Below are positions 28,188-42,803 of a stretch of 64,000 bases of DNA, in pieces (within the stretch, counting starts at the first letter, position 1; every line of letters starts with the position of its first letter). The stretch lies in the sequence record NC_110934.1; one strand, given 5' to 3'. The notes beneath the pieces were generated by a model. It was given only the letters and a program-made list of their open reading frames with translations. It made no database searches and had not been told where the DNA came from. Position numbers and translations under genes: made by a program. Origin of the DNA: Klebsiella phage KPP2018.

Positions 28188-28216
28188 ATTATATAATAAC
28201 TAGGGCTAAAAGTCAA
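28188..28216 (-). promoter_or_regulatory. Sigma70 promoter (TTGACT-17-TATAAT)
   Basis: Motif and spacing checked. Confidence 0.6.
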
Positions 28217-28229
28217 CTACTTTTTTATC

Positions 28230-28646: not shown

Positions 28647-28684
28647 GGCTTTCTCCTATCTTCAAAAATTATTAAAGCCCCCTT

Positions 28685-28715
28685 TGCCTAAAAAGGCGGG
28701 AATACTCCCGCCTCA
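28685..28715 (-). terminator. Rho-independent terminator
   Basis: GGCGGGAGTATTCCCGCC followed by TTTTT in minus sense, just after the endolysin stop codon. Confidence 0.6.
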
Positions 28716-28723
28716 GTTATTAA

Positions 28724-29137
28724 TTAAACTAGTTCGACATGACCGCCATCATAGGTACCACGTTTTATTTCATCGTGATAATCTCCCGAAGCATTCCAAT
28801 CAGCACCAAAGCGAAGTTTAATGCCTAGTTCTTTACCGGCTTGTTCAAAAGCCTTTTTAACTGCCCAAAATGCTTCTAAATCATTCCAATCAATTTTGCC
28901 ATTAATGTATGGAGCAAAATCAAGGGCATCCCCAGTAATATGCTTGCTTTTACTAGGATCTTTTAAAAATGAAGTACCATTAGCAATATTCTGGGCACTT
29001 TGTGCTACTGTACGAATACCCTGTACGATCGTGAAATCATATGGAGATAATTCTAAAGCTCTACGAGCTACTTTTTGTAGCTCTGGCTTAACGGTAGCTA
29101 ATTGTTTTTCGCTATTTTTACCAAATTTAAAACTCAT
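28724..29137 (-). CDS. lys: Endolysin, L-alanyl-D-glutamate peptidase (M15 family), 137 aa
   Basis: Size and sequence character match the T5 endolysin. The holin gene is upstream with a 4-nt overlap. Confidence 0.8.
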   Translation of the reverse strand: MSFKFGKNSEKQLATVKPELQKVARRALELSPYDFTIVQGIRTVAQSAQNIANGTSFLKDPSKSKHITGDALDFAPYINGKIDWNDLEAFWAVKKAFEQAGKELGIKLRFGADWNASGDYHDEIKRGTYDGGHVELV

Positions 29138-29790
29138 ATTGATCTACCTAAAGATCTCTGTTGTGGGGAACAGAGCTTTGTTAAATACTCGTTAAATTTC
29201 TCAGAATCGGCTGCATCTACAGGATTATCTTTCCAAGCAATACCAATATATCCAGCATAGATATTGTTTAGATTGAAATACGGACAAGTGTATATGTAAT
29301 TAAAAGTAACGTTCTTAAACGCAGGTATATTTAACCCCATGTATTTATTTACTTTTACACTTAAATCCGATGCGTAGTTAAAGCCTTCCAAGTGACGTCT
29401 ATATAGCTCAGACGTTTTATTTACCGCTTTATCGGCCAAGTCAGCCCTATCTAATTGCGCATTGCTTTCCCATGCAATAATGTTAGAATAATCATTAATG
29501 GCATCGGGTTTATACTTGACGACAAAAACAGCATCCGCACCCGTTTGGGAGAAAAGCACCATGCTCTTCTCTCTAGCTACATTAGGAAAGTTATCTATCC
29601 TTTGAGTTTGAACATCCTGTAGAACCGCAGACGTGGAGAAAGTCTTTAAGAATGACATCACCTCGCTAGTATTACTAACAAATAAGAAAATAATGACAGC
29701 AACTAAGATAGTTAGCAGACGTTTAAGAAGCGATGCTGGATCTTTCGCTTCTTGGAGCAGTACCGTTAATAATTGTAAGAACTTTTCCAA
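29134..29790 (-). CDS. hol: Holin (T5-type, 218 aa), apparent TTG start
   Basis: N-terminal transmembrane helix followed by a large periplasmic domain. GAGGAGG sits 7 nt before TTG. Promoter TTGTAA-17-TATAAT near 29830-29860. Confidence 0.65.
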   Translation of the reverse strand: MEKFLQLLTVLLQEAKDPASLLKRLLTILVAVIIFLFVSNTSEVMSFLKTFSTSAVLQDVQTQRIDNFPNVAREKSMVLFSQTGADAVFVVKYKPDAINDYSNIIAWESNAQLDRADLADKAVNKTSELYRRHLEGFNYASDLSVKVNKYMGLNIPAFKNVTFNYIYTCPYFNLNNIYAGYIGIAWKDNPVDAADSEKFNEYLTKLCSPQQRSLGRSI

Positions 29791-29904
29791 TTGTAACCTC
29801 CTCTAACCAGTACCATTATACTAATTTTGGAGGAAAATTACAATGTGTTTTTAAAGATCACTTCTGGAGCATAAAATTTTGTCGTTGTCAAGAAGAATTT
29901 TAGA

Positions 29905-29940
29905 TAAAAGAAAAGCCAGGGTCGTTAAACCCTGGCTTAA
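29905..29940 (-). terminator. Rho-independent terminator
   Basis: AAGCCAGGGT..ACCCTGGCTT followed by a T-run in minus sense. Confidence 0.65.
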
Positions 29941-29946
29941 AACTAC

Positions 29947-30546
29947 TTACTCTTCGTTGTGCTCCTCGAATTGAGGTAACTGGGCTTTATTATATTGCTC
30001 AGATCGATATTTTGCCAAGATTTCAATACGCTTATGGATTTCTTTGCTATCTAGATAGATATTTTTGTTGTCTTTTACCATCTCGTCGATTTCATCTATT
30101 GAGAAGAATGGATAGTAGACATCTAGCATCATATCTTCTACGAACTTGTTGTAAGATTCATAGGCTTTCTTGATTTCTTGACCTTTCTCACAGAATCCGC
30201 CAGAGAACGTGTGTCCCATTAACGTAGCATGTGGATGTACTACCCATCCATGACAGGATAGGAAAATTGTGCAGTAAGCAGAAGCACTAGGACCAATCAG
30301 ATGTCCTATAACTGTTCCACGGCAATTAGCAATTAAGTTAGATAACTGTGCAGCAGTATCAACATAACCACCCGGGCCATTAATCATCAGATTAATTTCG
30401 TCGTCCTCATTTGCCTGCATAAGTACCATTGATAAATCACGGTATTCATCCGGCGGGCCTAATTCTTCATCAAAGAAAAAGGTATACTCATTAGATTGGC
30501 GAATGGAGTGAAACAGGTTAGTCTTTTCTTCTTTTTTATTAGTCAT
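29947..30546 (-). CDS. ClpP-like serine peptidase-fold protein (199 aa)
   Basis: INGPGGYV motif resembles the ClpP INSPGG motif. Confidence 0.5.
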   Translation of the reverse strand: MTNKKEEKTNLFHSIRQSNEYTFFFDEELGPPDEYRDLSMVLMQANEDDEINLMINGPGGYVDTAAQLSNLIANCRGTVIGHLIGPSASAYCTIFLSCHGWVVHPHATLMGHTFSGGFCEKGQEIKKAYESYNKFVEDMMLDVYYPFFSIDEIDEMVKDNKNIYLDSKEIHKRIEILAKYRSEQYNKAQLPQFEEHNEE

Positions 30547-30558
30547 AGCGATCCTTGA

Positions 30559-31311
30559 TTATCCAACTAGTGGTTCTAGCTCTAAGTCACAGAAGTTATA
30601 AACTTCTAGTTTAAGGTTATTGATACCATCGAATTTATTAACTAATTCGTGAGTAATATATTTTGCAGGAATACCACTTTCAGATGGATGATCTGATTTA
30701 ATAGTGAACTTCTGCTCAGCGGGTACTACATTTACTATCAAAGAATCCATATCTAAATGGTTTGTTTCTCTGAGTAGCTCTCCTTCATTGGGGAATCTAA
30801 CATCTGTTATTACGGCGACGTCTGGGTCGTCTTTAGCGATGGATTGCTCCAGAATTATGAGCCAAATGCGTTCATGCACCAGCTGCCTTCCTAGCTCTGT
30901 TCCTACGAGCTGTAACATTTTTCTCGGAGAAATAAATAAACTATAAAGACCATCTTCTTTACTCCCTGAGATAAGTTGTTGAGGATTAAGATATTTTTCC
31001 TCAAAAATAGGCCAAACGTACGAGAAGTCTTCAAACTTATCGATACCATACTTAAACCACACATCCCTGGCTCGCTCCAATTGAGATTGTGTGACCGTAA
31101 ACCATTGGTCAATCTCTTTTCCCCTGCGCTCTCCTAGAAACTCTGGAGTTACACCGAGGATTACGGATGCAAGTTCATAAACGGGCTTAGCAAAACTGTA
31201 ACGACAGGGTAAACACATTGGATACGTGTCATTACACCAATCAATAATTAATTTTGCAACGGTATCTTTTCCCGAACCAGCTTCACCATGTAAACCGACT
31301 AATACTGACAT
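30559..31311 (-). CDS. dnk: Deoxynucleoside monophosphate kinase (250 aa)
   Basis: P-loop GEAGSGKDT. Size matches T5 Dnk. Confidence 0.7.
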   Translation of the reverse strand: MSVLVGLHGEAGSGKDTVAKLIIDWCNDTYPMCLPCRYSFAKPVYELASVILGVTPEFLGERRGKEIDQWFTVTQSQLERARDVWFKYGIDKFEDFSYVWPIFEEKYLNPQQLISGSKEDGLYSLFISPRKMLQLVGTELGRQLVHERIWLIILEQSIAKDDPDVAVITDVRFPNEGELLRETNHLDMDSLIVNVVPAEQKFTIKSDHPSESGIPAKYITHELVNKFDGINNLKLEVYNFCDLELEPLVG

Positions 31312-31664
31312 TAATCTTTCCTATTTGTAATGGGTGGATAGTAAACTAAGCAACGTTTTTCTTGTAAATCTTGACGATAGAAGCAAACCATACCAGTCAG
31401 TCGTGAAATGTAAGAGTAAACTGCTTCCTCACATTTTGCTTTTGCATTCCAATCTTTGTATGGTATAACAACTACTACGCCATCTTCTCCATTTGTAGCT
31501 AATTTCTTTTCAAACCTAAAGTTAAAGCTACAAGGTTGAAGTCCTTTAGGCCAGTCTACATGAGCTTGCTTTAACTCATGAGATGGCTCTGGTTTTATTT
31601 CTTCTGCACAGCCTGTGATCGTGATTGTGGCTGCGAGCAGTACTCCAAGTTTCCAGTTAAACAC
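31311..31664 (-). CDS. Outer-membrane lipoprotein, o-spanin-like (117 aa)
   Basis: Lipobox ITGC after a signal peptide. Its 5' end overlaps the i-spanin-like gene by 70 nt. Confidence 0.5.
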   Translation of the reverse strand: MFNWKLGVLLAATITITGCAEEIKPEPSHELKQAHVDWPKGLQPCSFNFRFEKKLATNGEDGVVVVIPYKDWNAKAKCEEAVYSYISRLTGMVCFYRQDLQEKRCLVYYPPITNRKD

Positions 31665-32044
31665 GCTAATCTTTCCTCGAACTCTTTATTCTGCTTTTTA
31701 GCAATTAATGTTACCAATCCAGGCTTTGCAGCGATAACATCTTGACGACTAAGAGCTTTATCTAGCTGCTTAATCTTTTTGTCTAGATCTGCTTGCGAAA
31801 TATTATTCATTGTGAAATACTGATTCATTCTAGTCTCACGAAGTTCGCTTTCAGCTTTCACCTTATTAAGGGAAGTCTCTAGAGAGGAAATCTTTTTAGT
31901 AGCTACCGCAAGATCTCCCGCTAAAGTCTCCACTTTATCTACTAAGTGATAAGCACCGAACCCGATGCCTATCGCTAGACCTGCTCCCAGGATATACCAC
32001 TTACCGTGCCATATTCCTGAAAGAAGTTTTTGTATCAAATCCAT
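31595..32044 (-). CDS. i-spanin-like protein (149 aa)
   Basis: N-terminal transmembrane helix followed by a long coiled coil. Overlaps the lipoprotein gene. Confidence 0.5.
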   Translation of the reverse strand: MDLIQKLLSGIWHGKWYILGAGLAIGIGFGAYHLVDKVETLAGDLAVATKKISSLETSLNKVKAESELRETRMNQYFTMNNISQADLDKKIKQLDKALSRQDVIAAKPGLVTLIAKKQNKEFEERLACLTGNLEYCSQPQSRSQAVQKK

Positions 32045-32699
32045 GCGCTGCTAACCTGTCTTTATCTGATACTTTAATCATATCAGGCTCACCAGTTCCT
32101 AGTACACCAAAGATATACTGTTCGAGAACTTGGTGTAAACGGTATAAGTTACTTTCAATTTCCTGCCACGGAATACCTGACTGATGGAAACGAATGTTAG
32201 TCTGAATCACGAAGTTACGAACATCATCGTTATCGTTCTTTTTAATACCTTTCACATATGCAATCGGTACACGCAGTTCGGATAAGATACGTTCTGCTTT
32301 AGGTTTTGCTTCAGCGAGCAAATCACGCATTGTTTCACGAACATCTCCACGACTCTTATCCATTAAGTAAGAGCGAGCATGCAATCCCATCTCTTCCATT
32401 TTATCGAACATAGTGTCGAGATTAAACGTTTTGAAGCTAAATGCTGGATGCCAGCAGTACAGCTCGTGTAACCAGTAAACTTCACCTGCAACAAATAGTG
32501 GGTTTACAAAATATTCGAAATCACCACGAAAAGATAGCGAGCCATCACGAAATACCTGGCGAGTATGCACAATGTTCTTTTCTGCATCATCGGTTACTTT
32601 AACCAGCAACTCTTCAGTTTTACGCTCCCAAACACGATCTGGGTCGAACAAACTGTTTTGCAAATCATACACATCGGCGAACTTAGAAATAATCCTCAT
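32001..32699 (-). CDS. Hypothetical protein (232 aa)
   Basis: Consensus promoter at 32731-32759. Confidence 0.6.
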   Translation of the reverse strand: MRIISKFADVYDLQNSLFDPDRVWERKTEELLVKVTDDAEKNIVHTRQVFRDGSLSFRGDFEYFVNPLFVAGEVYWLHELYCWHPAFSFKTFNLDTMFDKMEEMGLHARSYLMDKSRGDVRETMRDLLAEAKPKAERILSELRVPIAYVKGIKKNDNDDVRNFVIQTNIRFHQSGIPWQEIESNLYRLHQVLEQYIFGVLGTGEPDMIKVSDKDRLAAHGFDTKTSFRNMAR

Positions 32700-32730
32700 A
32701 TTTAATCCTCTTGCCTCAATCTATAAACAT

Positions 32731-32759
32731 ATTATACAAAAGTTTGGGCATCTAAGCAA
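32731..32759 (-). promoter_or_regulatory. T5-early-type promoter (TTGCTT-17-TATAAT)
   Basis: Motif and spacing checked. Confidence 0.65.
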
Positions 32760-32780
32760 CTAAAATTTTATTATAAAAAT

Positions 32781-32809
32781 AGCCCAGTCGCAAAAGTGCA
32801 GGCTGGGCT
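32781..32809 (-). terminator. Rho-independent terminator
   Basis: AGCCCAG..CTGGGCT followed by a T-run in minus sense. Confidence 0.55.
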
Positions 32810-32853
32810 TTGTCATTATTTGCTTTTGCTAGTAAGTTGATTTAGTATCAATC

Positions 32854-33234
32854 TTATGTAATATTAGTTTCTCTAGCTTTGCGTAGTACCCCTGCATTTC
32901 TCCACAATTTGATGTCAGCAACTGTTTCTTTATATGGAGCAATGGTAGAACCAATTGGGCCAGCAACTAATAGTCCAAAGAACCCTACAATACGCATGTA
33001 GAACAAGCATTCTTTGGCTGTCATATTATTTACTGCTTTTTTCTGCTTTTCATCTTTAAACTTCTGTTCTTGATCATCAATATGTAGATACTTAACAAAC
33101 CATTCAGCAGAATATTCATCCAAATGTCTAATAATAGCTATCGCATATCCAGCACCGATTAAAAACCAGGTTGTAACAAGAATTAGTAATATAGTCATAT
33201 TATCTCCAGTTAGGGCTAGCAGCCATCTCACCAC
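32854..33234 (-). CDS. Membrane protein (126 aa)
   Basis: Three transmembrane segments. Confidence 0.55.
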   Translation of the reverse strand: MVRWLLALTGDNMTILLILVTTWFLIGAGYAIAIIRHLDEYSAEWFVKYLHIDDQEQKFKDEKQKKAVNNMTAKECLFYMRIVGFFGLLVAGPIGSTIAPYKETVADIKLWRNAGVLRKARETNIT

Positions 33235-33308
33235 TTACCGCACTAAGGGGCACGACTCCCTTATCCGTAACAGTTGCAGGTGACGCAACTCGGTCCTACG
33301 CGAGTTCT

Positions 33309-33593
33309 TTAGGTATTCTGCATTTCAGCTTTAAATTTTTTCATATTACGAGTTTTTCTATAAAAGAAAAACACAGATGTTGGGCCTAGAAGAATATCCA
33401 CAATAAATATCATAGATCTAGCACATCTGAGTAATGTTTTATCATCAAGAGGAGGCAGATCTAACGGTCGAGTTTTATGTATAACGTATAATATTACATC
33501 TTTATTCTTAGAAATATACAGATCATCAACCAAGCTGTAAATAGCTACTATAGATCCAATGATGAACCAAAGAGCAAATGGAGAGATAATCAT
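33309..33593 (-). CDS. Membrane protein (94 aa)
   Basis: Two transmembrane segments. Confidence 0.5.
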   Translation of the reverse strand: MIISPFALWFIIGSIVAIYSLVDDLYISKNKDVILYVIHKTRPLDLPPLDDKTLLRCARSMIFIVDILLGPTSVFFFYRKTRNMKKFKAEMQNT

Positions 33594-33928
33594 TTCAGAT
33601 CCTTTTCATTAATTAGAATATTAGTAAACAGTGGAGTAACTCCTAGACTCATAGTAGGTCCAAACATATTCATGGCTACCCACAATTGCATAGTGATCAT
33701 CCCATCTTTAATCTCTGGATCTTTATATTCTTCGATACGTTTTTTAGCAAAGGCAATTACATCTGGAGTACTACCGTTCTTTACAACATGATCATGCCAA
33801 AACTGGGTATTCTCACTACGTAGGAATGTTAAAACATCCTTAGTTGCTGGAATCTGCACTGTGCTATTGATGTTTAGTCTTTTCACGTTCTTTTCCATGT
33901 TACTCTTCTCCTTCAAAGTCGCAATCAT
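33590..33928 (-). CDS. Hypothetical protein (112 aa)
   Basis: ORF. Confidence 0.55.
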   Translation of the reverse strand: MIATLKEKSNMEKNVKRLNINSTVQIPATKDVLTFLRSENTQFWHDHVVKNGSTPDVIAFAKKRIEEYKDPEIKDGMITMQLWVAMNMFGPTMSLGVTPLFTNILINEKDLK

Positions 33929-34196
33929 AACGACAAGTAAAAGAACTGGAGCTATTAGTACGTTGGGTGGTTATTTCACCGCGTTTGCTAATAGTAACGG
34001 CTGGAGTAGAGAAGTTTTTATTAGTATAGATTTCTACTTTACCATTACGTTCTTTAACATCACGAACTTTACCATACTCGGTAATAATGCCGTTCTGTTG
34101 GACTTTAACACTGCCATTTTTCATAGAAACTTTGGTAGATGCCAGAGAACCGAAACTAACTGCGGAGATCATCAGTGCAATAATAAACTTATTCAT
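33900..34196 (-). CDS. Secreted small protein (about 98 aa)
   Basis: Start at 34196 (MNKFIIALMISAVSFGSLAST) with a GGGGAGG RBS and a signal peptide. Confidence 0.5.
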   Translation of the reverse strand: MNKFIIALMISAVSFGSLASTKVSMKNGSVKVQQNGIITEYGKVRDVKERNGKVEIYTNKNFSTPAVTISKRGEITTQRTNSSSSFTCRYDCDFEGEE

Positions 34197-34470
34197 CTTC
34201 ATCCTCCCCACTACAATCACGACATACATCATAATCGTTGAAAGAACGTTCGTGAGCTTCACACCACCAAGAACAAGAATCGCAGAGAAACATTTCAGTT
34301 TTCTCAATTGCTTGGCCTAAAAGATCATCAGCTTCCTCAGCAGTAATCTTCAATCCGCACACATCTGCCACACGTTCTTTAATTAAACGACCTGCTTCGT
34401 GGTAAGACATACAGGTTCCCGCAACATCATGTTCAAGAACATGAACAGCACAGTCTAGACGAGTTTTCAT
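34189..34470 (-). CDS. Cys-rich zinc-binding-like acidic protein (93 aa)
   Basis: Multiple CxxC pairs. Consensus promoter at 34501-34529. Confidence 0.55.
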   Translation of the reverse strand: MKTRLDCAVHVLEHDVAGTCMSYHEAGRLIKERVADVCGLKITAEEADDLLGQAIEKTEMFLCDSCSWWCEAHERSFNDYDVCRDCSGEDEDE

Positions 34471-34500
34471 TTCAAACCTCTCTCATCAATTTATAAACAT

Positions 34501-34529
34501 ATTATAGCAAGAAAAGAGAGGTTTAGCAA
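34501..34529 (-). promoter_or_regulatory. T5-early-type promoter (TTGCTA-17-TATAAT)
   Basis: Motif and spacing checked. Confidence 0.65.
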
Positions 34530-34546
34530 ATGAATTATTTCAGAAT

Positions 34547-34894
34547 TTAGTCATAGCACCACCATAATCCACGCTTACGCATGTCATGGTCGCGATTATA
34601 ATCATAATTTTCTGGATCTTTCATCACGCGGTGGAGTTCTTGACGGTTCCCTTGGCGAACCATTTTATTAGAATGCCACTTAACATTCTTACTAATAGAA
34701 TTCCAGTTATAACCATCCTTTTTCTCATTACGAATGGTTGCTTCCTTCATTTCTTTTTTGATGTCGTCCCAGGATTTGGCATAAATAACACGAATCCAGT
34801 AGCCATTTTCTTTGAGGAAAGAATATTCTTGAGAGAATTGTTCTTTAGACTTCCACCACTGATCACCAGATTGTTTACGATAAGTACGGCTCAT
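34547..34894 (-). CDS. Hypothetical basic protein (115 aa)
   Basis: ORF. Confidence 0.55.
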   Translation of the reverse strand: MSRTYRKQSGDQWWKSKEQFSQEYSFLKENGYWIRVIYAKSWDDIKKEMKEATIRNEKKDGYNWNSISKNVKWHSNKMVRQGNRQELHRVMKDPENYDYNRDHDMRKRGLWWCYD

Positions 34895-34972
34895 ATTACC
34901 TCCATTAAGTCTTTTAAATTAACCTAATGTGGATGAATTTTATTATACATATATTATGTACCTTTATACAGA

Positions 34973-35008
34973 AAAACCCCAGACTACTTATTCAATAGCT
35001 GGGGTTTG
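34973..35008 (-). terminator. Rho-independent terminator
   Basis: CCCCAGCTATTGAATAAGTAGTCTGGGG followed by TTTTT in minus sense. Confidence 0.6.
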
Positions 35009-35015
35009 TTATTAA

Positions 35016-35321
35016 TTACAGATCGGGGCGTTCATCTTCGAACGCCACGAAGCCATCAAATTCATCATTTGAAATACCACCAGTATAGGTGATGTCCGCA
35101 ATCATCGCTTCCATTTTCCGGATCTCCGAGGTTTTCATGCCTGCTTTACTATTCTTATAGTATTTGCGAGGGTTCCCACACATCCAACAAGAACAGATGC
35201 AAGGAGTAGTAGTGACAATACCTAACCGCTTAGGGCTTTCTTCATGTGGAAAGATTGTCCAATACTTCTTGCGGTTGTTCTTCACACGTTGCCGGTGATG
35301 ACGTCTTAATGCTCGATCCAC
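35016..35321 (-). CDS. Basic zinc-ribbon protein (101 aa)
   Basis: Arg/His-rich N-terminus and a CxCxC...C cluster. Confidence 0.5.
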   Translation of the reverse strand: MDRALRRHHRQRVKNNRKKYWTIFPHEESPKRLGIVTTTPCICSCWMCGNPRKYYKNSKAGMKTSEIRKMEAMIADITYTGGISNDEFDGFVAFEDERPDL

Positions 35322-35402
35322 ACATTTCTCCTAAAACTTGGGAGATAAATGGAGTTTGCTCGACTACCTTGCGTAGTTCGGAGAAACCGTATCCAAACCC
35401 CA

Positions 35403-35771
35403 TTACATCGCCTGAGTAAATGTACGACTAATAACGTCGTTCTGTTGTTCACGAGTCAGTGCATTAAATCGAACAGCGTAGCCAGAGACACGGATGGTCA
35501 ACTGATGATATTTTTCAGGATGTTTCTGCGCATCCAAAAGCTGATCACGGCTTAACACATTGACATTTAGGTGCTGACCACCTTCGATTTGAGGGGCGAC
35601 TTCCACTTTGACTTCACGGAAGGCTTCGGGATCGAATTGTGGTGTGATACCTTCTAGATCTTCAACTAGAACTTTCTGTTTAAGTTCACCATTGTCGGAG
35701 TATAGCTGAATAATCTGATTTTCATGAACAAGGTTAATTACGCCAGATTTAAGATTTTGATATGCTTTCAT
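35403..35771 (-). CDS. grcA: Autonomous glycyl radical cofactor (GrcA/YfiD-like), 122 aa
   Basis: C-terminal 60 aa closely resembles E. coli GrcA, including the glycyl-radical motif [14 protein letters not shown]. Confidence 0.7.
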
Positions 35772-35813
35772 TAGATCTCCCCGATGTTAGAATTTGGCTC
35801 AGCTCTTTATTCT

Positions 35814-36008
35814 TTATACTTTTCCATAGTATACGGAAACTGTCTTACCAGTTTGGTTCATGACGTATGCTACTTCATCTTCTTTTAAAAAGATGGCTTG
35901 ATCTACTCCAACTATAGCCAATCTCTTATTTCTAGGATTAAAGCTTACGCTTTTGCCCGTATGGATATGTTCACCATTCTTGGCTGACATTATTTTAATT
36001 GTTAACAT
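35814..36008 (-). CDS. Hypothetical protein (64 aa)
   Basis: ORF. Confidence 0.45.
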   Translation of the reverse strand: MLTIKIMSAKNGEHIHTGKSVSFNPRNKRLAIVGVDQAIFLKEDEVAYVMNQTGKTVSVYYGKV

Positions 36009-36046
36009 AGCTGCTCCTAAATTTAGCTATCTCTAGCTATTTTAAT

Positions 36047-36122
36047 GGTAGTTAGTAGTGGATTTGAACCACTGTAGTCGCTCCGTATGAGGGAGGTGCA
36101 TAACCACTCTGCCAACTAACTG
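36047..36122 (-). tRNA. tRNA, anticodon CAT (Met, fMet or Ile2)
   Basis: Hand-folded cloverleaf with 7-bp acceptor stem, T-loop GGTTCAAATCC and encoded CCA. Confidence 0.6.
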
Positions 36123-36218
36123 TTATGTTTTACTAGACTAAGTAAGTATTCTTTATACTCTTTAGACCAATTAGCTTTTTTAAACTTTCCTGGACGCATA
36201 GTCTTAATTCCTAAATTT

Positions 36219-36295
36219 GGTACTCCGGGAGGGATTTAAACCCCCGATCTCTCGGTTATCAGCCGAGTGCTTTAGATCGCTAAGCTACCGAAGCA
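36219..36295 (-). tRNA. tRNA-Ile (GAT)
   Basis: Anticodon stem CTCGG/CCGAG with loop CTGATAA. Acceptor stem contains G-U pairs. CCA encoded. Confidence 0.6.
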
Positions 36296-36502
36296 TTAAT
36301 ATTTAATTGCAGAACGTTTACCATTTCTAGGCGCATCTGGAAGTCGTGCACGTTCTGCCATTCTTCGCTTAATCTTTGAGATATTTTCTAGTGTTTGTTC
36401 TTCAGGCTTAATACCTGAAACACTACACCACTGATTACCATCCCATGCGGTAATGATCATAACACCATTACCCATAATCTTTTCTGTGAAAGTAATTCTC
36501 AT
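36296..36502 (-). CDS. Hypothetical protein (68 aa)
   Basis: ORF. Confidence 0.45.
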   Translation of the reverse strand: MRITFTEKIMGNGVMIITAWDGNQWCSVSGIKPEEQTLENISKIKRRMAERARLPDAPRNGKRSAIKY

Positions 36503-36795
36503 TATAGCAACTCATCTAAGCAAGAGGTATATTTAAGTTTACCATCTTTATCTACTTTGATTTCGACTTCCGCTCGTGGTACTTGACGAACTACACCATG
36601 AATCATCTTATAGCGAATGCCTTTAGCTGGTTCACGATCTTTTGGAAATACTTGCTTAACCGTTACTACCTTGAAACCCTCACGCGGTGTTAACACTACT
36701 ACTTGATCACCTTCTTTGATCTTCCAAGAGCTAGGAAATTCATAGGTATAGCGTTGACCACCAGTTTGGAACACAACAGAAAGATAACGTTTCAT
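36502..36795 (-). CDS. Hypothetical protein (97 aa)
   Basis: Consensus promoter at 36826-36854. Confidence 0.55.
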   Translation of the reverse strand: MKRYLSVVFQTGGQRYTYEFPSSWKIKEGDQVVVLTPREGFKVVTVKQVFPKDREPAKGIRYKMIHGVVRQVPRAEVEIKVDKDGKLKYTSCLDELL

Positions 36796-36825
36796 TTGGT
36801 TTCCCTCTCATTAATTTATATAAAT

Positions 36826-36854
36826 ATTATAACAATAAATAAGAGAGAAAGCAA
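36826..36854 (-). promoter_or_regulatory. T5-early-type promoter (TTGCTT-17-TATAAT)
   Basis: Motif and spacing checked. Confidence 0.65.
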
Positions 36855-36862
36855 ATGAATTT

Positions 36863-37057
36863 TTAATAAAGTTTAGTCACTTCATAAACTATACTACGAG
36901 ATTCTTTATTACGTTGTATTAAATTAGCATATGCTTCTTCAGCTTCATTTTTAGTATTAAAGTCTATAACGTGAGAGGTATTAGCTCTGTTTGATTGGCT
37001 ATACCAGATAACTACTAGGAGTTTAAACATACTAATCCTTAAATTGGTGCTGGGCAC
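36863..37057 (-). CDS. Hypothetical protein (64 aa)
   Basis: ORF. Confidence 0.45.
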   Translation of the reverse strand: MPSTNLRISMFKLLVVIWYSQSNRANTSHVIDFNTKNEAEEAYANLIQRNKESRSIVYEVTKLY

Positions 37058-37132
37058 AGGATTCGAACCTGCAACGGGATTACTCCTCCTGATTACAAAT
37101 CAGGTGCATTCAACCATTCTGCCAACCCAGCA
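37046..37132 (-). tRNA. tRNA with long variable arm (87 nt); anticodon loop reads TGT (Thr?), an unusual combination
   Basis: Perfect 7-bp acceptor stem, T-arm GCAGG-TTCGAAT-CCTGT, anticodon stem CCTGA/TCAGG with loop TTTGTAA, and a 15-nt variable arm. Confidence 0.5.
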
Positions 37133-37296
37133 GAACCCGTTATTTCAACGGGATTTCTTTTTCAATAACAGGGGACTTGTCAGTCATGACTGTCATTGCC
37201 ATTTGTTGTAGAAATTCAAAGGTGAAGGCTACACGTTCTTCACCAATCTCTACTTCTACACGTTTCTTTTGTTTATCGATCTTGACTTTCAGATTA

Positions 37297-37518
37297 TCAG
37301 CCATCTTCGGGTTCTCGTTGCTGCGCTACTTCTAGCCAGTCTGGTAGAAGAAACTTTGTACGAAATTCTTCGTAAGTTTCTTTGGGATAAAAGCTAAAAC
37401 CTCCTTTCTCGTCATTCAGGATAACAGAGCCGTCAGTTTGTTCGTATGCTCGGTATGTTTCTCCAATAACAATAACTCGTTTATCGGTACTTTTATTACG
37501 AAATTCAAAAACGTGCAT
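37297..37518 (-). CDS. Hypothetical protein (73 aa)
   Basis: ORF. Confidence 0.45.
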   Translation of the reverse strand: MHVFEFRNKSTDKRVIVIGETYRAYEQTDGSVILNDEKGGFSFYPKETYEEFRTKFLLPDWLEVAQQREPEDG

Positions 37519-37534
37519 AACGTTTCCTTAAAGT

Positions 37535-37610
37535 TGGAGCGGCTAGAGGGAATCGAACCCTACTCAGCGAGGCTTGGAAGGCCTGCGACACAACCCGTGT
37601 GCTTAACCGC
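37535..37610 (-). tRNA. tRNA-Gly (TCC), tentative
   Basis: Anticodon loop CTTCCAA. Acceptor and T-arms fold. Confidence 0.5.
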
Positions 37611-37618
37611 TTATTGTT

Positions 37619-37694
37619 TGGCTGGAGAAGGAGGAATCGAACCTACCATTAACGGAGTCAAAGGCCGTTGTGCTAACCGTTACACTACTCTCCA
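37619..37694 (-). tRNA. tRNA-Gln (TTG)
   Basis: Loop CTTTGAC. Acceptor starts with a T-A pair. Confidence 0.55.
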
Positions 37695-37700
37695 ATTATT

Positions 37701-37776
37701 TGGCTGGAGTGCCTGGGATCGAACCAGGAACCTTCGGAGTCAGAGGCCGACGATCTGCCAATTGATCTACACTCCA
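37701..37776 (-). tRNA. tRNA-Gln (CTG)
   Basis: Loop CTCTGAC. Perfect acceptor stem. Paralogue of the previous tRNA. Confidence 0.6.
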
Positions 37777-37784
37777 ATAACCCT

Positions 37785-37985
37785 TTACTCTACAGGAACC
37801 GTGGCGATTGGTTCTGGATCTTCTAAACGTTTGCCTTCATGATCTACTCGAATAACTCCGCATCCTTCGCAAATCACAACAGCACCGTAGCCTTCTTTAA
37901 CTTCAGCTTCTGTAATCAAACCAGAAAGATCACCAGTATCTCTGCCCCACATATCAATGGAGCATTGTTTGCAGAAATCAGCCAT
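37785..37985 (-). CDS. Hypothetical protein (66 aa)
   Basis: ORF. Confidence 0.45.
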   Translation of the reverse strand: MADFCKQCSIDMWGRDTGDLSGLITEAEVKEGYGAVVICEGCGVIRVDHEGKRLEDPEPIATVPVE

Positions 37986-38010
37986 ATTTTATTTCCTATT
38001 TAAGTTAATT

Positions 38011-38087
38011 TGGGGTGGCTAGTGGAATTCGAATCCACATAGGCCTGATTCACAATCAGGATCATTAACCAATTATGATATAGCCAC
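38011..38087 (-). tRNA. tRNA-His (GTG)
   Basis: Anticodon stem CCTGA/TCAGG with loop TTGTGAA. Perfect acceptor stem. Confidence 0.65.
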
Positions 38088-38455
38088 AATTGAAAACTCG
38101 CAGGGTTAGCGAAACCTTCCTCAATTAGCATGTTCTAGAATACTAATCAAGTTATCTCCTATTGCACGCAGCTCAAGACGAGTACGAATTTTCAATTGTG
38201 GCGGCTCTCCGAAACTCTTCTACTCTAGCCTTAGCAGCTTACTCCCGAACGCATGTCGGGAAAGTCTTACTAAGAGCATCAAATAGCACCGTTACACTTT
38301 GAGCCATAGATATATCAAGAAGCAGAAGGACTTGAACCTTCACGAGATAGACCATTTATCTCAGCCGCTTTATGAGGTATGTTGCAAGGAGTGGATGTTC
38401 CTTATAAACCTTTTAGGCAGCCCCGTCTACCGATTCCGGCATACTTCAAGAATTT
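38083..38455 (-). ncRNA. Structured non-coding segment (candidate stable small RNA or degenerate tRNA remnants)
   Basis: No ORF of 30 aa or more with an RBS. An 18-bp imperfect inverted repeat GCCACAATTGAAAACTCG / CGAATTTTCAATTGTGGC at 38083-38100 and 38193-38210. A T-arm-like hairpin GAAGG-TTCAAGT-CCTTC at about 38336-38352 with no acceptor pairing. Confidence 0.3.
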
Positions 38456-38629
38456 TTATAAACCAGCAGAAGCCTCATTTAAAGCATCAACAATAGCCTC
38501 ACGTTGGGTCATTCCATACCCGGTGGAATCTAGGTGTGGCAAATAAGCCTTCCATCCCTTATCTGTTTCATGAAGACATGCTTTAAATTTTGTACCATCC
38601 TTCATTGTTACAGTAACTGTTTTGCTCAT
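38456..38629 (-). CDS. Hypothetical protein (57 aa)
   Basis: ATG at 38629 with an AAGGAAAT RBS. Below the track cut-off. Confidence 0.45.
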   Translation of the reverse strand: MSKTVTVTMKDGTKFKACLHETDKGWKAYLPHLDSTGYGMTQREAIVDALNEASAGL

Positions 38630-38649
38630 AAGATTTCCTTATAGTTAAT

Positions 38650-38739
38650 TGGCAGAAGATAATGGAGTCGAACCATCACCGTATCGCTACAGCGGGCTGG
38701 TTTTCAAGACCAGTTACGTACCACTACGTCCTATCTTCT
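38650..38739 (-). tRNA. tRNA-Ser (TGA)
   Basis: Type II, 90 nt. Anticodon stem CTGGT/ACCAG with loop CTTGAAA. Confidence 0.6.
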
Positions 38740-38745
38740 ATTGTT

Positions 38746-38836
38746 TGGCGGAAGAGGAGAGATTTGAACTCTCAAGCCGTTTTACCAGTCAGCCACTTTC
38801 CAAGCGGTTTTCGTCGCCAATTCGATTTGCTCTTCC
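38746..38836 (-). tRNA. tRNA-Ser (GGA)
   Basis: Type II, 91 nt. Loop TTGGAAA. T-arm GAGAG-TTCAAAT-CTCTC. Confidence 0.5.
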
Positions 38837-38865
38837 AATAATAAGATGATGCCTCTATCACACCA

Positions 38866-38945
38866 GGCAGTTACGCCTCGCTGGGATTCGAACCCATTAA
38901 AACAGCTCAACCAAGATAGTAGGTTTAATTTACTCTGACCATCAA
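38866..38945 (-). pseudogene. tRNA-like remnant (canonical T-arm but no acceptor pairing)
   Basis: GGGTTCGAATCCC T-arm at 38882-38896. No 5' segment complementary to the 3' acceptor strand. Confidence 0.3.
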
Positions 38946-38948
38946 ATT

Positions 38949-39025
38949 TGGTGCGTGACAAGGGATTCGAACCCTCAAAACCCGACTTCTAAGGACGGTA
39001 TGTATGCCAATTCCATCAATCACGC
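38949..39025 (-). tRNA. tRNA, anticodon TAG (Leu?), short variable loop
   Basis: 77 nt. Loop CTTAGAA. One U-U mismatch in the anticodon stem. Confidence 0.45.
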
Positions 39026-39030
39026 ATGTT

Positions 39031-39109
39031 TGGTGGAGAATAACGGAATCGAACCGTTCTGATGTCCTCGGTGCAAGCGAGGTGTCCACTCCATGCAGAC
39101 CCATTCCCC
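39031..39109 (-). tRNA. tRNA-Ala (TGC)
   Basis: Anticodon stem CCTCG/CGAGG with loop CTTGCAC. G3-U70 identity pair present. Confidence 0.65.
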
Positions 39110-39345
39110 AAATTCTTTAGTTTACTAAGGCTATTAGCTCGGCGTAACTACAGCACCTTCGCTTCAAGCGGAAGGAACCGCGTCATCTCGCAAACCCGAT
39201 ACACTATTCAGTTGCCGCTGAATCTAGTGGACTAATCTAGAACTTCTCCCGAATCGTAGGGATCGTGCTTTTTGGCAGCCAGTCCTAGGTCGAGCTAATA
39301 CCTTAGTGAACTATGATGAGGATTTCTCCTCATCAATTTATATAA
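39110..39345 (-). ncRNA. Promoter-driven structured non-coding segment (candidate small RNA)
   Basis: Lies directly downstream of the consensus promoter at 39348-39376 with no ORF. A 16-bp inverted repeat CTATTAGCTCG / CGAGCTAATA(C) at 39130-39145 and 39289-39303. Several internal hairpins. Confidence 0.35.
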
Positions 39346-39347
39346 AT

Positions 39348-39376
39348 ATTATAACAAGAAATTAAGCATCAAGCAA
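39348..39376 (-). promoter_or_regulatory. T5-early-type promoter (TTGCTT-17-TATAAT); overlaps the 3' end of gene 39369..39737
   Basis: Motif and spacing checked. Confidence 0.65.
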
Positions 39377-39737
39377 GTACATTTTTAGCGATTTCTTGTA
39401 GTTCCTTTACATCACGAACGTAAAGGTAATCAGAGCTTCCAGAGTGCATACTTTGCATAACCACACCTTCATCTGGTGCATTATCCTTCAGAGTAATTCC
39501 TAACCAGAACTCGGCAAAACTAGGTGTTATCTCACCTTGACTTGCCTTGAATACATCATATTCTGTAAGTTCTTGACCAGTAGATAATCCCAAATATACA
39601 GAACTAAGATCAATCTCTTTATGAGACTCATAAAACTCCGATAGATCCTTTTCCATATCCCAGCCATGCTGTAGCGCGAACTCCATTGTCACATGACCGA
39701 AATAACCTTGAATCTTGCTTGATAATTGCATTTGCAA
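39369..39737 (-). CDS. Hypothetical protein (122 aa)
   Basis: ORF. Confidence 0.55.
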   Translation of the reverse strand: MQMQLSSKIQGYFGHVTMEFALQHGWDMEKDLSEFYESHKEIDLSSVYLGLSTGQELTEYDVFKASQGEITPSFAEFWLGITLKDNAPDEGVVMQSMHSGSSDYLYVRDVKELQEIAKNVLA

Positions 39738-39756
39738 TTCCTTATTTTGAGTTAAT

Positions 39757-39830
39757 TGGTACTCGGTGATAGAATCGAACTATCGCAACCGCCGTGTAAA
39801 GACGGGGTTCTCCCATTAAACTAACCGAGC
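39757..39830 (-). tRNA. tRNA-Val (TAC)
   Basis: Loop TTTACAC. T-arm GATAG-TTCGATT-CTATC. Confidence 0.55.
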
Positions 39831-39834
39831 AATT

Positions 39835-39913
39835 TGGTAGATCGCCTGGGACTCGAACCCAGAACCTTCCGATTAAAAGTCGGATGCTACTAAACCTATT
39901 GAGCTAGCGATCT
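39835..39913 (-). tRNA. tRNA-Lys (TTT)
   Basis: Anticodon stem TCCGA/TCGGA with loop CTTTTAA. Confidence 0.65.
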
Positions 39914-39914
39914 A

Positions 39915-40082
39915 TTAGTAACCATTGTATACTTCTTTAATAGAGTGAACCTTCAAGTAAGGGTGATTAGTATTAAACTCTGACATTACTTCATCCCAAT
40001 TTTTACCATAATGGGCAAGTAAGGATTTTGATGTATTCTTACCTGAACGTTTGTCGCTTACTACTAATCGAAATACTTTCAT
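39915..40082 (-). CDS. Hypothetical protein (55 aa)
   Basis: ATG at 40082 with a GGGGA RBS. Confidence 0.4.
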   Translation of the reverse strand: MKVFRLVVSDKRSGKNTSKSLLAHYGKNWDEVMSEFNTNHPYLKVHSIKEVYNGY

Positions 40083-40102
40083 TTCGAAATCCCCTATTAA
40101 AA

Positions 40103-40180
40103 TGGAAGCGGGTGCAGGAATCGAACCTACCTCTTTCTAGCTTATGAGACTAGTGATCTCTACCAGAGATCTAACCCGCA
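40103..40180 (-). tRNA. tRNA, anticodon CAT (second copy), 1-72 mismatch
   Basis: Loop CTCATAA. The first acceptor pair is unpaired. Confidence 0.55.
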
Positions 40181-40186
40181 ATTGTT

Positions 40187-40262
40187 TGGTCAGTGCGGCA
40201 GGACTCGAACCTGCGACCCGAAGCATCCAAGGCTCCCACGCTACCAACTGCGCTACGCACTG
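40187..40262 (-). tRNA. tRNA-Pro (TGG)
   Basis: Loop CTTGGAT. Perfect acceptor stem. Confidence 0.6.
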
Positions 40263-40303
40263 TTAATTCTTTTATTGTGGAGGAATATTAATAATTCGTC
40301 CGT

Positions 40304-40471
40304 CTACACAATAAACGGTACTAGGAATTGTACTATATATATGTAGAAATTCTTTATATTACTCTCCCCGCCACAGAAATTTTTAGCAAATTCATACTCT
40401 TTATTAATGGTTGAGTCAAATTTAAAACAACCAGTAAGTAGGAATACAGATAGTAATAAAATTTTCTTCAT
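40304..40471 (-). CDS. Small lipoprotein (55 aa)
   Basis: MKKILLLSVFLLTGC lipobox. AAGGA RBS. Promoter at 40504-40532. Confidence 0.5.
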   Translation of the reverse strand: MKKILLLSVFLLTGCFKFDSTINKEYEFAKNFCGGESNIKNFYIYIVQFLVPFIV

Positions 40472-40503
40472 TTAGCTTTCCTTCTCTTCACTTTATAAAA
40501 TAT

Positions 40504-40532
40504 ATTATACAGATAATTAAGCAGAATAGCAA
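40504..40532 (-). promoter_or_regulatory. T5-early-type promoter (TTGCTA-17-TATAAT)
   Basis: Motif and spacing checked. Confidence 0.6.
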
Positions 40533-40680
40533 ATGAATTTTTAATAAATTTACTTATTGTGTAGGCCACCTGGAGGCTACCAACCCCACGGCTGACAAAG
40601 AAGTTTGCGAGACCTCTCTTAAATGCCAGAATAGATCCGCCGATCTATCGGAACCTACATAATAAGTAAACTTTATAGTG

Positions 40681-40801
40681 TCATTCTAGACAGGACTCGA
40701 ACCTGTTATCACTTGTGCGGACTTACGAGAACCATTCTTTCACTCGAATCGAACGAGCTTCTGCCCTCGCCAAGCTGGTTTCCCCGTCAACCACGCTAGA
40801 A
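40681..40801 (-). ncRNA. 121-nt tRNA-like element with a perfect 7-bp acceptor stem and about 45 extra nt between the anticodon region and the T-arm
   Basis: Ends ATTCTAG / CTAGAAT pair perfectly. D-arm TGGT/ACCA. Terminal T-arm ACAGG-TTCGAGT-CCTGT. An internal second T-arm-like hairpin GCTCG-TTCGATT-CGAGT. Confidence 0.35.
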
Positions 40802-40924
40802 TGTTTAATTGTTTTCAGTGCAAGAGTCCGAGTCTTGGACACGACCGCTTCGCAAGTACATAGGCAGCTTATCATGAATCAGCACTTCCGAATTGCTAGC
40901 TCCGTGTTCTGCACTGAAATTTTA

Positions 40925-41272
40925 TTAGTTTAACCGTAAAGTATTATCTACTTCACCATTAATTGTTCGGCATTCTTCTGGGATTGCCGGGGTGGCCTTG
41001 TATTCCCACCATTCAGAACCGTCATATTCACCACGTTCTAACCAAGTTCCATCAGTAAACCATACGTTACCATAAAGCAATTGTCCACCGAAACCAGAAT
41101 CATATTTAAAGTCTAGATTATTTAGAAAATCTTCAATATCTTTTTCTGTATAACCTACGGGTAATACCCAAACTTCTTTGTCCCCATAATAACCGAATTC
41201 TATCTTAATACACTTAACTTCAGACTTAGTATTCTTTAGGGCAAGTAACAACTCTTCTTTAGCATTAATCAT
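40925..41272 (-). CDS. Hypothetical protein (115 aa)
   Basis: ORF. Confidence 0.55.
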   Translation of the reverse strand: MINAKEELLLALKNTKSEVKCIKIEFGYYGDKEVWVLPVGYTEKDIEDFLNNLDFKYDSGFGGQLLYGNVWFTDGTWLERGEYDGSEWWEYKATPAIPEECRTINGEVDNTLRLN

Positions 41273-41297
41273 AACATATTTCTCGTGCTAGTTTAAT

Positions 41298-41374
41298 TTG
41301 GCGCGACCGATGGGATTCGAACCCACATTCTCTCCAGTGACAGGGGAGTACCATTACCAAGCCAGCCCCGGTCG
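41298..41374 (-). tRNA. tRNA-Asp (GTC)
   Basis: Loop CTGTCAC. Perfect acceptor stem GCGACCG/CGGTCGC. Confidence 0.6.
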
Positions 41375-41384
41375 CATAATTCAT

Positions 41385-41570
41385 TTACTCAGCTTTGAGT
41401 TTTTCAATAGCTGCATTAAGTTCCTTAAGAAACTCTTTTCGTACATTAAGACGATTAAGACTTACTAGTATATCATGTTTAAGTTCTTCGATATATTTCT
41501 TCTCAACTTCAATATTGTTGATAGTGCTATCACGATGAACTTCTAGCTGCGCAATTACATTCTTGGACAT
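41385..41570 (-). CDS. Hypothetical coiled-coil protein (61 aa)
   Basis: ORF. Confidence 0.45.
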   Translation of the reverse strand: MSKNVIAQLEVHRDSTINNIEVEKKYIEELKHDILVSLNRLNVRKEFLKELNAAIEKLKAE

Positions 41571-41672
41571 GCTTGTTTCCTCAGTTATTAATAAAAATGG
41601 TATCTGTGGCTGAATTCGATATCAGCAATGATAGCTGGTTGGCTACCGGTTTACTTAACTCTACACAGAATT

Positions 41673-41755
41673 TGGCGGGCCGTGTAGGATTCGAACCTAC
41701 GTTGTCTTTCGACATGGATTAACAGTCCACCGCCAAACCGCTTGGCTAACGACCC
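41673..41755 (-). tRNA. tRNA with Tyr/Ser-like architecture (83 nt, extra arm) but anticodon GTT (Asn)
   Basis: Loop CTGTTAA. 13-nt variable arm with a GTC-GAAA-GAC hairpin. T-arm GTAGG-TTCGAAT-CCTAC. Confidence 0.45.
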
Positions 41756-41907
41756 TAAATTTATATTGCTGACTAGGATTTTCACCTAGACGGAGTTAGC
41801 ACCGTAGCGTGTAGCGGCATACCCCTCCAAACCGTGCCTCATCTTTCAATTACGGAGACAGTGTTCCTACGCGTGCCTGAATTGATTTAACAATTCTTTC
41901 AGCAAAT

Positions 41908-41983
41908 TGGACGACCGCATGAGATTTGAACTCACATAAGAAGGATTTGCAATCCTTCTCCTAAGCCATTCAGCCAACGGTCG
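41908..41983 (-). tRNA. tRNA-Cys (GCA)
   Basis: Anticodon stem AAGGA/TCCTT with loop TTGCAAA. Confidence 0.65.
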
Positions 41984-42031
41984 ATTTATCTTGTTCTGTC
42001 ATGTTGCTCCCCCAGTTCAATTTATGTAATT

Positions 42032-42060
42032 ATTATACAGAACTTTTGGAAACTAAGCAA
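42032..42060 (-). promoter_or_regulatory. T5-early-type promoter (TTGCTT-17-TATAAT)
   Basis: Motif and spacing checked. Confidence 0.65.
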
Positions 42061-42340
42061 CTACATTTTTTAAGAATTTGATGCCTTTCTTTCTCTTCTT
42101 ATATTTCCACGTTAATGGATTCTGTCGATTATGAACACTTGAGATCTTTGTCTCATCAAAGTTCTTCAATATCATGTAATCACAAGATAGTTGTTCTAAT
42201 GGAATGTGATCACCGTCAAAAGCGTGTACATAAGGTTGTTGACTAGCACGATAATGATAGACTTTGTTAATTCTACGTTTCAGCGACTTATCCGCGCAGT
42301 AAATAAAGAAGTTTTCAGGATGCATCAGCAGCTCCTTCAA
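42053..42340 (-). CDS. Hypothetical basic protein (95 aa)
   Basis: ORF. Confidence 0.5.
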   Translation of the reverse strand: MKELLMHPENFFIYCADKSLKRRINKVYHYRASQQPYVHAFDGDHIPLEQLSCDYMILKNFDETKISSVHNRQNPLTWKYKKRKKGIKFLKNVVA

Positions 42341-42342
42341 TT

Positions 42343-42417
42343 TGGTGCACCCTGTTCGTATCGAACGAACCTCTCAAGCTCTTCAGGCAAGCGCTAATCC
42401 ATCTCAGCTAAAGGTGC
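42343..42417 (-). tRNA. tRNA-Phe (GAA), tentative
   Basis: Loop CTGAAGA. The anticodon stem has two U-U mismatches. Confidence 0.4.
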
Positions 42418-42423
42418 AAATTT

Positions 42424-42494
42424 TGGCAGGGGTAAAGGTATTCGAAACCTTTTCATGGGTTTTGGAGGCCCATTTGCAACCTATGCGTACCCCA
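42424..42494 (-). tRNA. tRNA-Trp (CCA), tentative; short (71 nt)
   Basis: Loop CTCCAAA. Reduced D-arm and a 1-72 mismatch. Confidence 0.35.
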
Positions 42495-42503
42495 ATTATT
42501 AAT

Positions 42504-42578
42504 TGGCACACCCAACGAGGATCGAACTCGTGTTCCCACTGTGAAAGAGTGGTGTCCTAACCGCTAGACGATAGGTGC
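42504..42578 (-). tRNA. tRNA-Glu (TTC)
   Basis: Anticodon stem CCACT/AGTGG with loop CTTTCAC. Confidence 0.65.
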
Positions 42579-42585
42579 ATTAAAT

Positions 42586-42673
42586 TGGTGGGGAAAGATG
42601 GAGTCGAACCACCCGAGTCGCAATGACAACTGATTTACAGTCAGCTCTGCTACCACTTACAGAATATTTCCCC
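42586..42673 (-). tRNA. tRNA-Tyr (GTA)
   Basis: Type II, 88 nt. Loop CTGTAAA. Perfect acceptor stem GGGGAAA/TTTCCCC. Confidence 0.65.
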
Positions 42674-42803
42674 ATATTTAGAAGTATTCAAAAATTCTCA
42701 TTTAAACACTTTTAAATATGTTTCCAAATTAGATAAATATTATATCAAGTTTTATAGTATTGGGCAAGTCAAATTTTAAAGAACTTGCCCAATGCTGTAT
42801 TAG

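Follow-up and report, generated by a model that had tools for sequence, protein, structure and literature searches.

The grcA locus and its surroundings

The DNA analysed here (the window) comprises 64,000 nucleotides of Klebsiella phage KPP2018 (NC_110934.1). Positions 33000-38000 are 98.4% identical to Salmonella phage L6jm (Tequintavirus, Demerecviridae), and numerous further T5-like phages reach 96-98% identity here. Positions 1-37944 of L6jm are colinear with window positions 8438-45593. In addition, the portal, terminase, receptor-binding, and pre-early genes of T5-like phages are matched by window positions 1-20000. By identity and colinearity the window is T5-like, and the GrcA-like gene described here is therefore phage-encoded and located in the T5 early region, so that the initial annotation was right in treating it as a phage copy.

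The gene is an ORF on the minus strand that starts with ATG, encodes 122 amino acids, and ends with a TAA stop included in the end coordinate. The start of the next gene shares the sequence TAATG with this stop. The following features were located at the locus:

35403-35771, minus strand: GrcA/Y06I-type autonomous glycyl-radical protein, complete CDS (ORF listing and translation)
35777-35782, minus strand: putative Shine-Dalgarno-like GGGGAG, 5 nt upstream of the ATG (read from the sequence)
35592-35771, minus strand: N-terminal half, residues 1-60 (alignment, hhalign, AlphaFold2)
35406-35591, minus strand: C-terminal glycyl-radical domain, residues 61-122 (Pfam PF01228, phmmer, Foldseek)
35505-35507, minus strand: codon CAT of His89 (residue count, codon read from the sequence)
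35472-35492, minus strand: glycyl-radical loop RVSGYAV, residues 94-100 (read from the sequence)

The gene is a member of a co-oriented block of small early ORFs and tRNA genes. The neighbouring ORFs at 35814-36008, 35242-35403, 35016-35321, 34547-34894, and 34189-34470 all belong to PHROGs without known function. A cluster of 21 tRNA genes mixed with small ORFs extends over window positions 36046-44016 on the minus strand and begins 275 bp upstream of grcA; clusters of this kind are characteristic of the early region in T5. A promoter scan returned 10 sites compared to 7.9 +/- 3.1 in shuffled sequence, which is not above chance, and no dedicated promoter is therefore claimed. Early expression of the T5-like GrcA is something we infer from the position of the gene alone.

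The window also contains a large repeat. Positions 16120-34536 recur at 45594-64000 as a direct repeat of at least 18.4 kb with 99.85% identity, the copies being 29,474 bp apart and the second one running to the window end. The copies differ only by a 1-bp G indel (16261 / 45735) and by the replacement of about 45 bp at one site (18546-18588 vs. 48019-48052), at which the second copy has the GC hairpin GGGCCTTCGGCCC and the first an unrelated sequence. This patch is a localised cassette-like substitution within otherwise identical DNA. At the junction 45593/45594, the sequence passes from the L6jm-equivalent position 37944 back to about 7879, thereby truncating a gene similar to ORF77 of L6jm (ORF 44763-45599). 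There is no homology between the sequences joined at this junction, and none of the 50,697 phage records that were searched has such a junction. The arrangement looks like the product of a mis-assembly or like a rearranged or mixed genome; a genuine tandem duplication of 29.5 kb, against which the packaging limit of T5 weighs, seems less probable than mis-assembly or a mixed population. If the repeat goes on past the window end, a second grcA copy would follow at a distance of about 29.5 kb. Signs of duplication or mixing at the grcA locus are also seen in the 110,901-bp T5-like contig IMGVR_UViG_2974601769, which has two diverged GrcA-like copies, one near each end (L025 1825-2190 and L036 8001-8366). 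These copies are identical in 111/122 amino acids and in 87% of their nucleotides, and their flanks are partly similar.

The C-terminal glycyl-radical domain

The initial annotation had identified the product as a GrcA/YfiD-type cofactor based on motifs in its C-terminal half, and these motifs are present at residues 63-118 of the translation. The identification is borne out by profile, sequence, and structure searches. The Pfam model Gly_radical (PF01228) matches residues 62-103 with an E-value of 1.1e-17 and 64.9 bits against a cut-off of 22.2. The best solved-structure match in phmmer is E. coli YfiD/GrcA (PDB 6owr, E 2.5e-29), with 1h16_A and 1cm5_A also being found, and BLASTP against E. 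coli GrcA yields 73% identity over 74 residues (E 6e-38). The phmmer search further returned the C-terminus of pyruvate formate-lyase (PFL) PflB, with its last 62 residues, at an E-value of 1e-25, and other glycyl-radical enzymes with much weaker scores. In Foldseek, the AlphaFold2 model (pLDDT 72) has its top matches in the NMR structure of YfiD (6owr) and in PFL crystal structures (2pfl), and fold searches among viral and PDB structures returned glycyl-radical proteins only. The similarity to the C-termini of GrcA and PFL that had been proposed for the protein is thus evident.

Among the NCBIfam models, GrcA (TIGR04365) is the best match (E 6.8e-34), aligned over residues 50-122 only, and with 116.9 bits the T5-like protein does not reach the equivalog cut-off of 170. 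The validated phage protein Y06I of T4 likewise remains under this value with 153.3 bits; therefore, the cut-off, which is tuned to bacterial GrcA, is not decisive for phage copies.

Residues 61-122 are equivalent to residues 698-759 of PflB and to residues 66-127 of YfiD. Over this region, the protein is identical to PflB in 48/62 positions, to E. coli GrcA in 47/62, to T4 Y06I in 48/62, and to a jumbo-phage copy in 51/62. Overall, the radical domain is 76-82% identical among T5-like phages, jumbo phages, T4, host GrcA, and host PflB. The loop RVSGYAV contains the predicted radical glycine G97, encoded by the GGC codon at 35481-35483; in an alignment of 56 homologues, this loop and about 37 other C-terminal positions are invariant. 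Among 30 T5-like copies, the radical domain has a dN/dS of 0.019.

One position of the domain deviates in the window copy. At position 89, which corresponds to P726 of PflB and lies 8 residues before the radical glycine, the window copy has histidine, whereas proline occupies this position in 29/30 T5-like copies and in over 90% of the homologues as a whole. This P89H exchange corresponds to one C-to-A change; it may stem from a sequencing error, be neutral, or cause a mild defect.

The protein is also covered over its full length by PHROG 1209 (residues 1-122 vs. profile positions 1-121, E 3.1e-46). A pseudogene or decaying remnant was ruled out by the fact that all 30 T5-like copies examined are intact and by the overall dN/dS of 0.07. 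As a small free-standing protein with a PFL-type RVSGYAV domain and full-length membership in PHROG 1209, the product belongs to the class of GrcA, YfiD, and Y06I.

Assignment as a formate C-acetyltransferase (PflB/TdcE, about 760 aa) was rejected because the respective model TIGR01255 gave 82.5 bits compared to a cut-off of 994.2 and was matched at profile positions 683-744 only. In general, only residues 61-122 align with PFL-family models, at the last ca. 62 positions of these, and neither the barrel nor the catalytic cysteines are present. A class III NrdD glycyl-radical C-terminus was rejected as well, based on the loop RVSGYAV instead of one of the RVCGYLG type and on the lack of similarity to NrdD.

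The N-terminal half

The initial annotation had described a 50-aa N-terminal extension. This was a misreading, as the N-terminal half has the same length as in GrcA and Y06I: E. coli GrcA and T4 Y06I consist of 127 and 120 amino acids, respectively, and each has an N-terminal half of about 60 residues. The T5-like N-terminal half opens with MKAYQ as in T4 Y06I. When compared alone, it matches the N-terminal halves of other phages with an hhalign E-value of 1.2e-3 and a probability of 20%, and hhalign finds no significant match to bacterial N-terminal halves (E 0.34). In contrast, the N-terminal halves of the other phages, T4 being included in this pool, are clearly homologous to the bacterial ones (E 2.6e-15, probability 98.5%). 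The N-terminal half alone has no match among the PHROGs and no BLASTP match to that of T4. Thus, judged by its sequence, the T5-like N-terminal half appears to be of standard length but diverged beyond significant similarity.

In YfiD, the N-terminal 60 residues are disordered in solution, and this half is needed for binding to cleaved PFL and for efficient installation of the radical (PMC8683613). For the T5-like protein, AlphaFold2 predicts a beta-rich N-terminal half with strands at residues 2-6, 12-16, 19-26, 29-36, and 51-54; pLDDT is 77-81 over residues 1-40 and then about 70 and 67 across residues 41-60. With a dN/dS of 0.11 among the 30 T5-like copies, the N-terminal half is under purifying selection and is therefore functional, its homology to the N-terminal half of GrcA being no more than putative.

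Distribution and existing annotation

A tblastn search found the GrcA-like gene in 1582 phage records. The groups among these matches are T5-like phages (89-99% identity), T4-like phages (about 52% over the full length), and jumbo phages, with about 480 T5-like records carrying the gene; one T5-like contig (L027) has it at 94% identity. In many T5-like records in GenBank, the gene is already named 'autonomous glycyl radical cofactor GrcA'. The grcA gene of DT571/2 (AJA41700.1, 'putative autonomous glycyl radical cofactor GrcA [Enterobacteria phage T5]') is 93% identical and syntenic. It is located between the homologues of T5.055 and T5.058 and adjoins the tRNA cluster, which is the same position as in the window. 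Compared to the existing annotated T5-like copies, the window copy differs only by the singleton P89H. The identification of a GrcA-like gene in T5-like phages is, thus, correct but already known and annotated. The gene also appears in GenBank as 'pyruvate formate-lyase', '2-ketobutyrate formate-lyase', 'acetyltransferase-like', and 'ribonucleotide reductase subunit', all of which are wrong names for a product of 122 amino acids without a catalytic barrel.

Relation to Y06I, YfiD, and PflB

Two spare parts for PFL have been validated experimentally, namely T4 Y06I and E. coli YfiD, which restore the activity of oxygen-cleaved PFL after having been activated by PFL activase (PMC8683613, PMC13450708). 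Y06I, encoded by gene vs.6, was described as an autonomous glycyl-radical cofactor by Wagner et al. 2001, as cited in PMC8683613. Its gene is located in the tk-vs-regB-denV region and is annotated with phrog=1209. Y06I and the T5-like protein are both phage-encoded, consist of about 120 amino acids in a two-part layout, share an identical RVSGYAV loop, and belong to PHROG 1209; they are 52% identical over the full length. They differ in the degree of resemblance to the host protein: the C-terminal half of Y06I is identical to E. coli GrcA in 60/62 positions, whereas that of the T5-like protein reaches 47-48/62 with GrcA, PflB, and T4. Likewise, the N-terminal half of Y06I is recognisably GrcA-like (NCBIfam alignment over residues 20-120), whereas the T5-like one is not.

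E. coli GrcA/YfiD (6owr; TIGR04365) resembles the phage protein in its size (127 vs. 122 aa) and in its C-terminal PFL-type radical domain. However, it is encoded by the host and has a disordered N-terminal region of 60 residues, while the phage N-terminal half is predicted to be beta-rich and has no significant similarity to it. With the C-terminal domain of PflB (residues 698-759; 1h16, 2pfl), the phage protein shares the loop around Gly734 and the RTFTQxM tail. Unlike PflB, it possesses neither the 10-stranded barrel nor the catalytic residues Cys418 and Cys419, and it can therefore not be a formate acetyltransferase on its own.

Proposed role in the repair of host pyruvate formate-lyase

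By analogy to its validated counterparts, the T5-like GrcA probably serves as a spare part that is activated by host PflA and rescues oxygen-cleaved host PflB. This reading builds on the domain identity, the RVSGYAV loop, the homology to the validated T4 protein, and the purifying selection reported above. The steps, the partner proteins PflB and PflA, the time of expression, and the benefit for the phage are what we infer from E. coli YfiD and T4 Y06I. The protein would act as a 14-kDa free-standing version of the C-terminal glycyl-radical domain of PFL. It would be produced from the early region after infection, at a stage at which the host is probably no longer able to induce its own grcA. 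Once host PflB has been cut by oxygen at the radical glycine G734, the C-terminal domain of the phage protein would dock into the damaged enzyme. Subsequently, the host activase PflA would install a radical on G97 of the RVSGYAV loop, and the conversion of pyruvate and CoA into acetyl-CoA and formate could restart in the complex. In this way, infected enterobacteria might continue to produce ATP by fermentation, and formate, under anaerobic or microaerobic conditions as in the gut. A role in host anaerobic metabolism, which the initial annotation had put forward, is the accepted reading for the T4 homologue (PMC8683613).

The choice of partner proteins is informed by the gene content of the phages. 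Screening of 20 mid-sized ORFs of the window for an activase or a second glycyl-radical enzyme gave no match to Radical_SAM or Gly_radical, and by colinearity with L6jm the remaining large ORFs of the window are structural, lysis, and nucleotide-kinase genes. The annotations of L6jm and DT571/2 likewise include neither an activase nor a PFL barrel. Therefore, the protein has to use host proteins. The identity of the radical domain across families agrees with this, as it is expected if the partner is a conserved host enzyme. PFL activase itself accepts peptides with the sequence RVSGYAV but not RVCGYLG (PMC13450708). Some observations weigh against PFL repair. The N-terminal half, which is important in YfiD, has no significant sequence similarity to YfiD or Y06I, as far as can be judged from alignments; the window copy has His89, and its score is below the NCBIfam cut-off for GrcA. 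A literature search found no T5-specific work on the GrcA-like gene.

Genomic association with ribonucleotide reductase genes

T5-like phages encode nrdD outside the window (DT571/2, L002 11372-13198; L6jm, L012 4283-6157), and in L6jm the distance to grcA is about 25 kb. The T5-like NrdD is strongly similar to NrdD of T4 (E 2e-177), and its C-terminal loop reads RRVCGYLG, NrdD tails having either RRVCGYLG or RRVSGYLG. In DT571/2 and L6jm, no nrdG is annotated, and the ORFs following nrdD comprise just 65-95 codons. The T5-like nrdD, like grcA, thus seems to depend on a radical-SAM activase of the host. In the T5-like phages and in T4, no nrd genes were found within 8 kb of grcA.

A different gene order is found in other phages. 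In Klebsiella and Salmonella jumbo phages of 345-357 kb, the order is nrdD-grcA-nrdG (L008 3185-6160, L009 3183-5827, L041-L043). Aeromonas T4-like phages have the order nrdD-nrdG-grcA, with grcA overlapping the stop of nrdG (L005 2367-5384, L068, L092). In a 330-kb contig (L010), grcA is about 3 kb away from nrdD/nrdG, and in Vibrio phage D479 (L006 2656-6372) the order is nrdA-nrdB-grcA with grcA abutting nrdB.

Alternative explanations

Repair of host PFL has to be weighed against other uses of the same protein. A diverged N-terminal half that is under selection could give altered binding, and in YfiD it is this half that controls the binding to cleaved PFL (PMC8683613). The phage protein could accordingly be imagined as a decoy or inhibitor that titrates host PflA or blocks PflB unproductively, thereby redirecting the flux of pyruvate. 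This is very improbable given the very strong purifying selection on the catalytic loop and on the whole radical domain: the key motifs are identical to those of functional GrcA and Y06I, and a pure decoy would need no competent radical site. In addition, the effect of the T4 homologue on PFL is to restore its activity, not to inhibit it (PMC8683613). Just as little credit can be given to a direct use of the protein as a spare domain for the phage's own NrdD. Support of a phage anaerobic ribonucleotide reductase had been suggested by the initial annotation, together with a check for nrdD, nrdG, and pflB. That check was answered by the presence of nrdD in T5-like phages, with neither an annotated nrdG nor a PFL barrel. 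Both proteins are glycyl-radical proteins and sensitive to oxygen, the T5-like NrdD comes without an annotated NrdG, and grcA adjoins nrdD/nrdG in other lineages, all of which would fit such a use. However, BLASTP of the GrcA-like protein against the T5-like NrdD finds no similarity (E 2.4), and the C-terminus of NrdD has a CGYLG loop in a different fold context. The loop of the phage protein is the PFL loop RVSGYAV, which PFL activase tells apart from RVCGYLG (PMC13450708). Furthermore, the identity of the radical domain to host PflB and GrcA stays at 76-82% in phages whose NrdDs vary widely, with 56-67% between jumbo lineages and lengths from 601 to 704 aa. The missing similarity to NrdD and the discrimination of loops by the activase therefore make direct repair of NrdD unlikely. 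Of the suggested connection to ribonucleotide reductase, what survives is an indirect metabolic link, with which the nrdD/nrdG clusters of other lineages agree better than with direct repair.

Such a link is the basis of a variant in which PFL is repaired or boosted in the same manner, with formate instead of energy being the gain for the phage. Here, grcA would form the metabolic side of a module for anaerobic dNTP supply, and host PFL would provide formate for the class III ribonucleotide reductase of the phage. Formate serves as hydrogen donor in class III ribonucleotide reductases of the formate type, reportedly including the enzyme of E. coli, a finding attributed to Mulliez et al. 1995. 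A formate-dependent class III ribonucleotide reductase may also use up formate derived from PFL (PMC13450708). Such a module would explain why grcA occurs within nrdD/nrdG clusters of several unrelated large phages, and why T5-like phages have grcA together with an nrdD, both activases being borrowed from the host. The location of grcA inside or beside these clusters in jumbo and Aeromonas T4-like phages, its proximity to them in contig L010, its position directly after nrdA-nrdB in D479, and the T4-like NrdD of T5-like phages all speak for it. On the other hand, grcA is distant from nrd genes in T5-like phages and T4, the neighbours in D479 are the aerobic nrdA and nrdB, and clustering could merely reflect co-regulation of early 'metabolic' genes. 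That PFL repair secures the reductant for NrdD is plausible from gene order, and as an account of phage grcA we consider formate supply a tentative possibility. No paper on a link between phage grcA and nrdD was found in the searchable literature. Repair of host PFL for the maintenance of fermentative metabolism is the reading that we prefer.

Implications for T5-like phages

The class of proteins was established for T4 in 2001, and annotation exists for T5-like phages, so that current knowledge on its identity is unchanged. Modest additions are made in two respects. The N-terminal half has diverged in T5-like phages although the same region mediates the recognition of damaged PFL in YfiD, and the recurrence of grcA beside nrdD/nrdG points to a connection of PFL repair with the anaerobic reduction of nucleotides that is open to testing. 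Beyond that, grcA is a clean example of an auxiliary metabolic gene of phages that would repair, rather than replace, a host enzyme, and the GrcA-like gene suggests that T5-like phages of the gut have the means for anaerobic as well as microaerobic infection.
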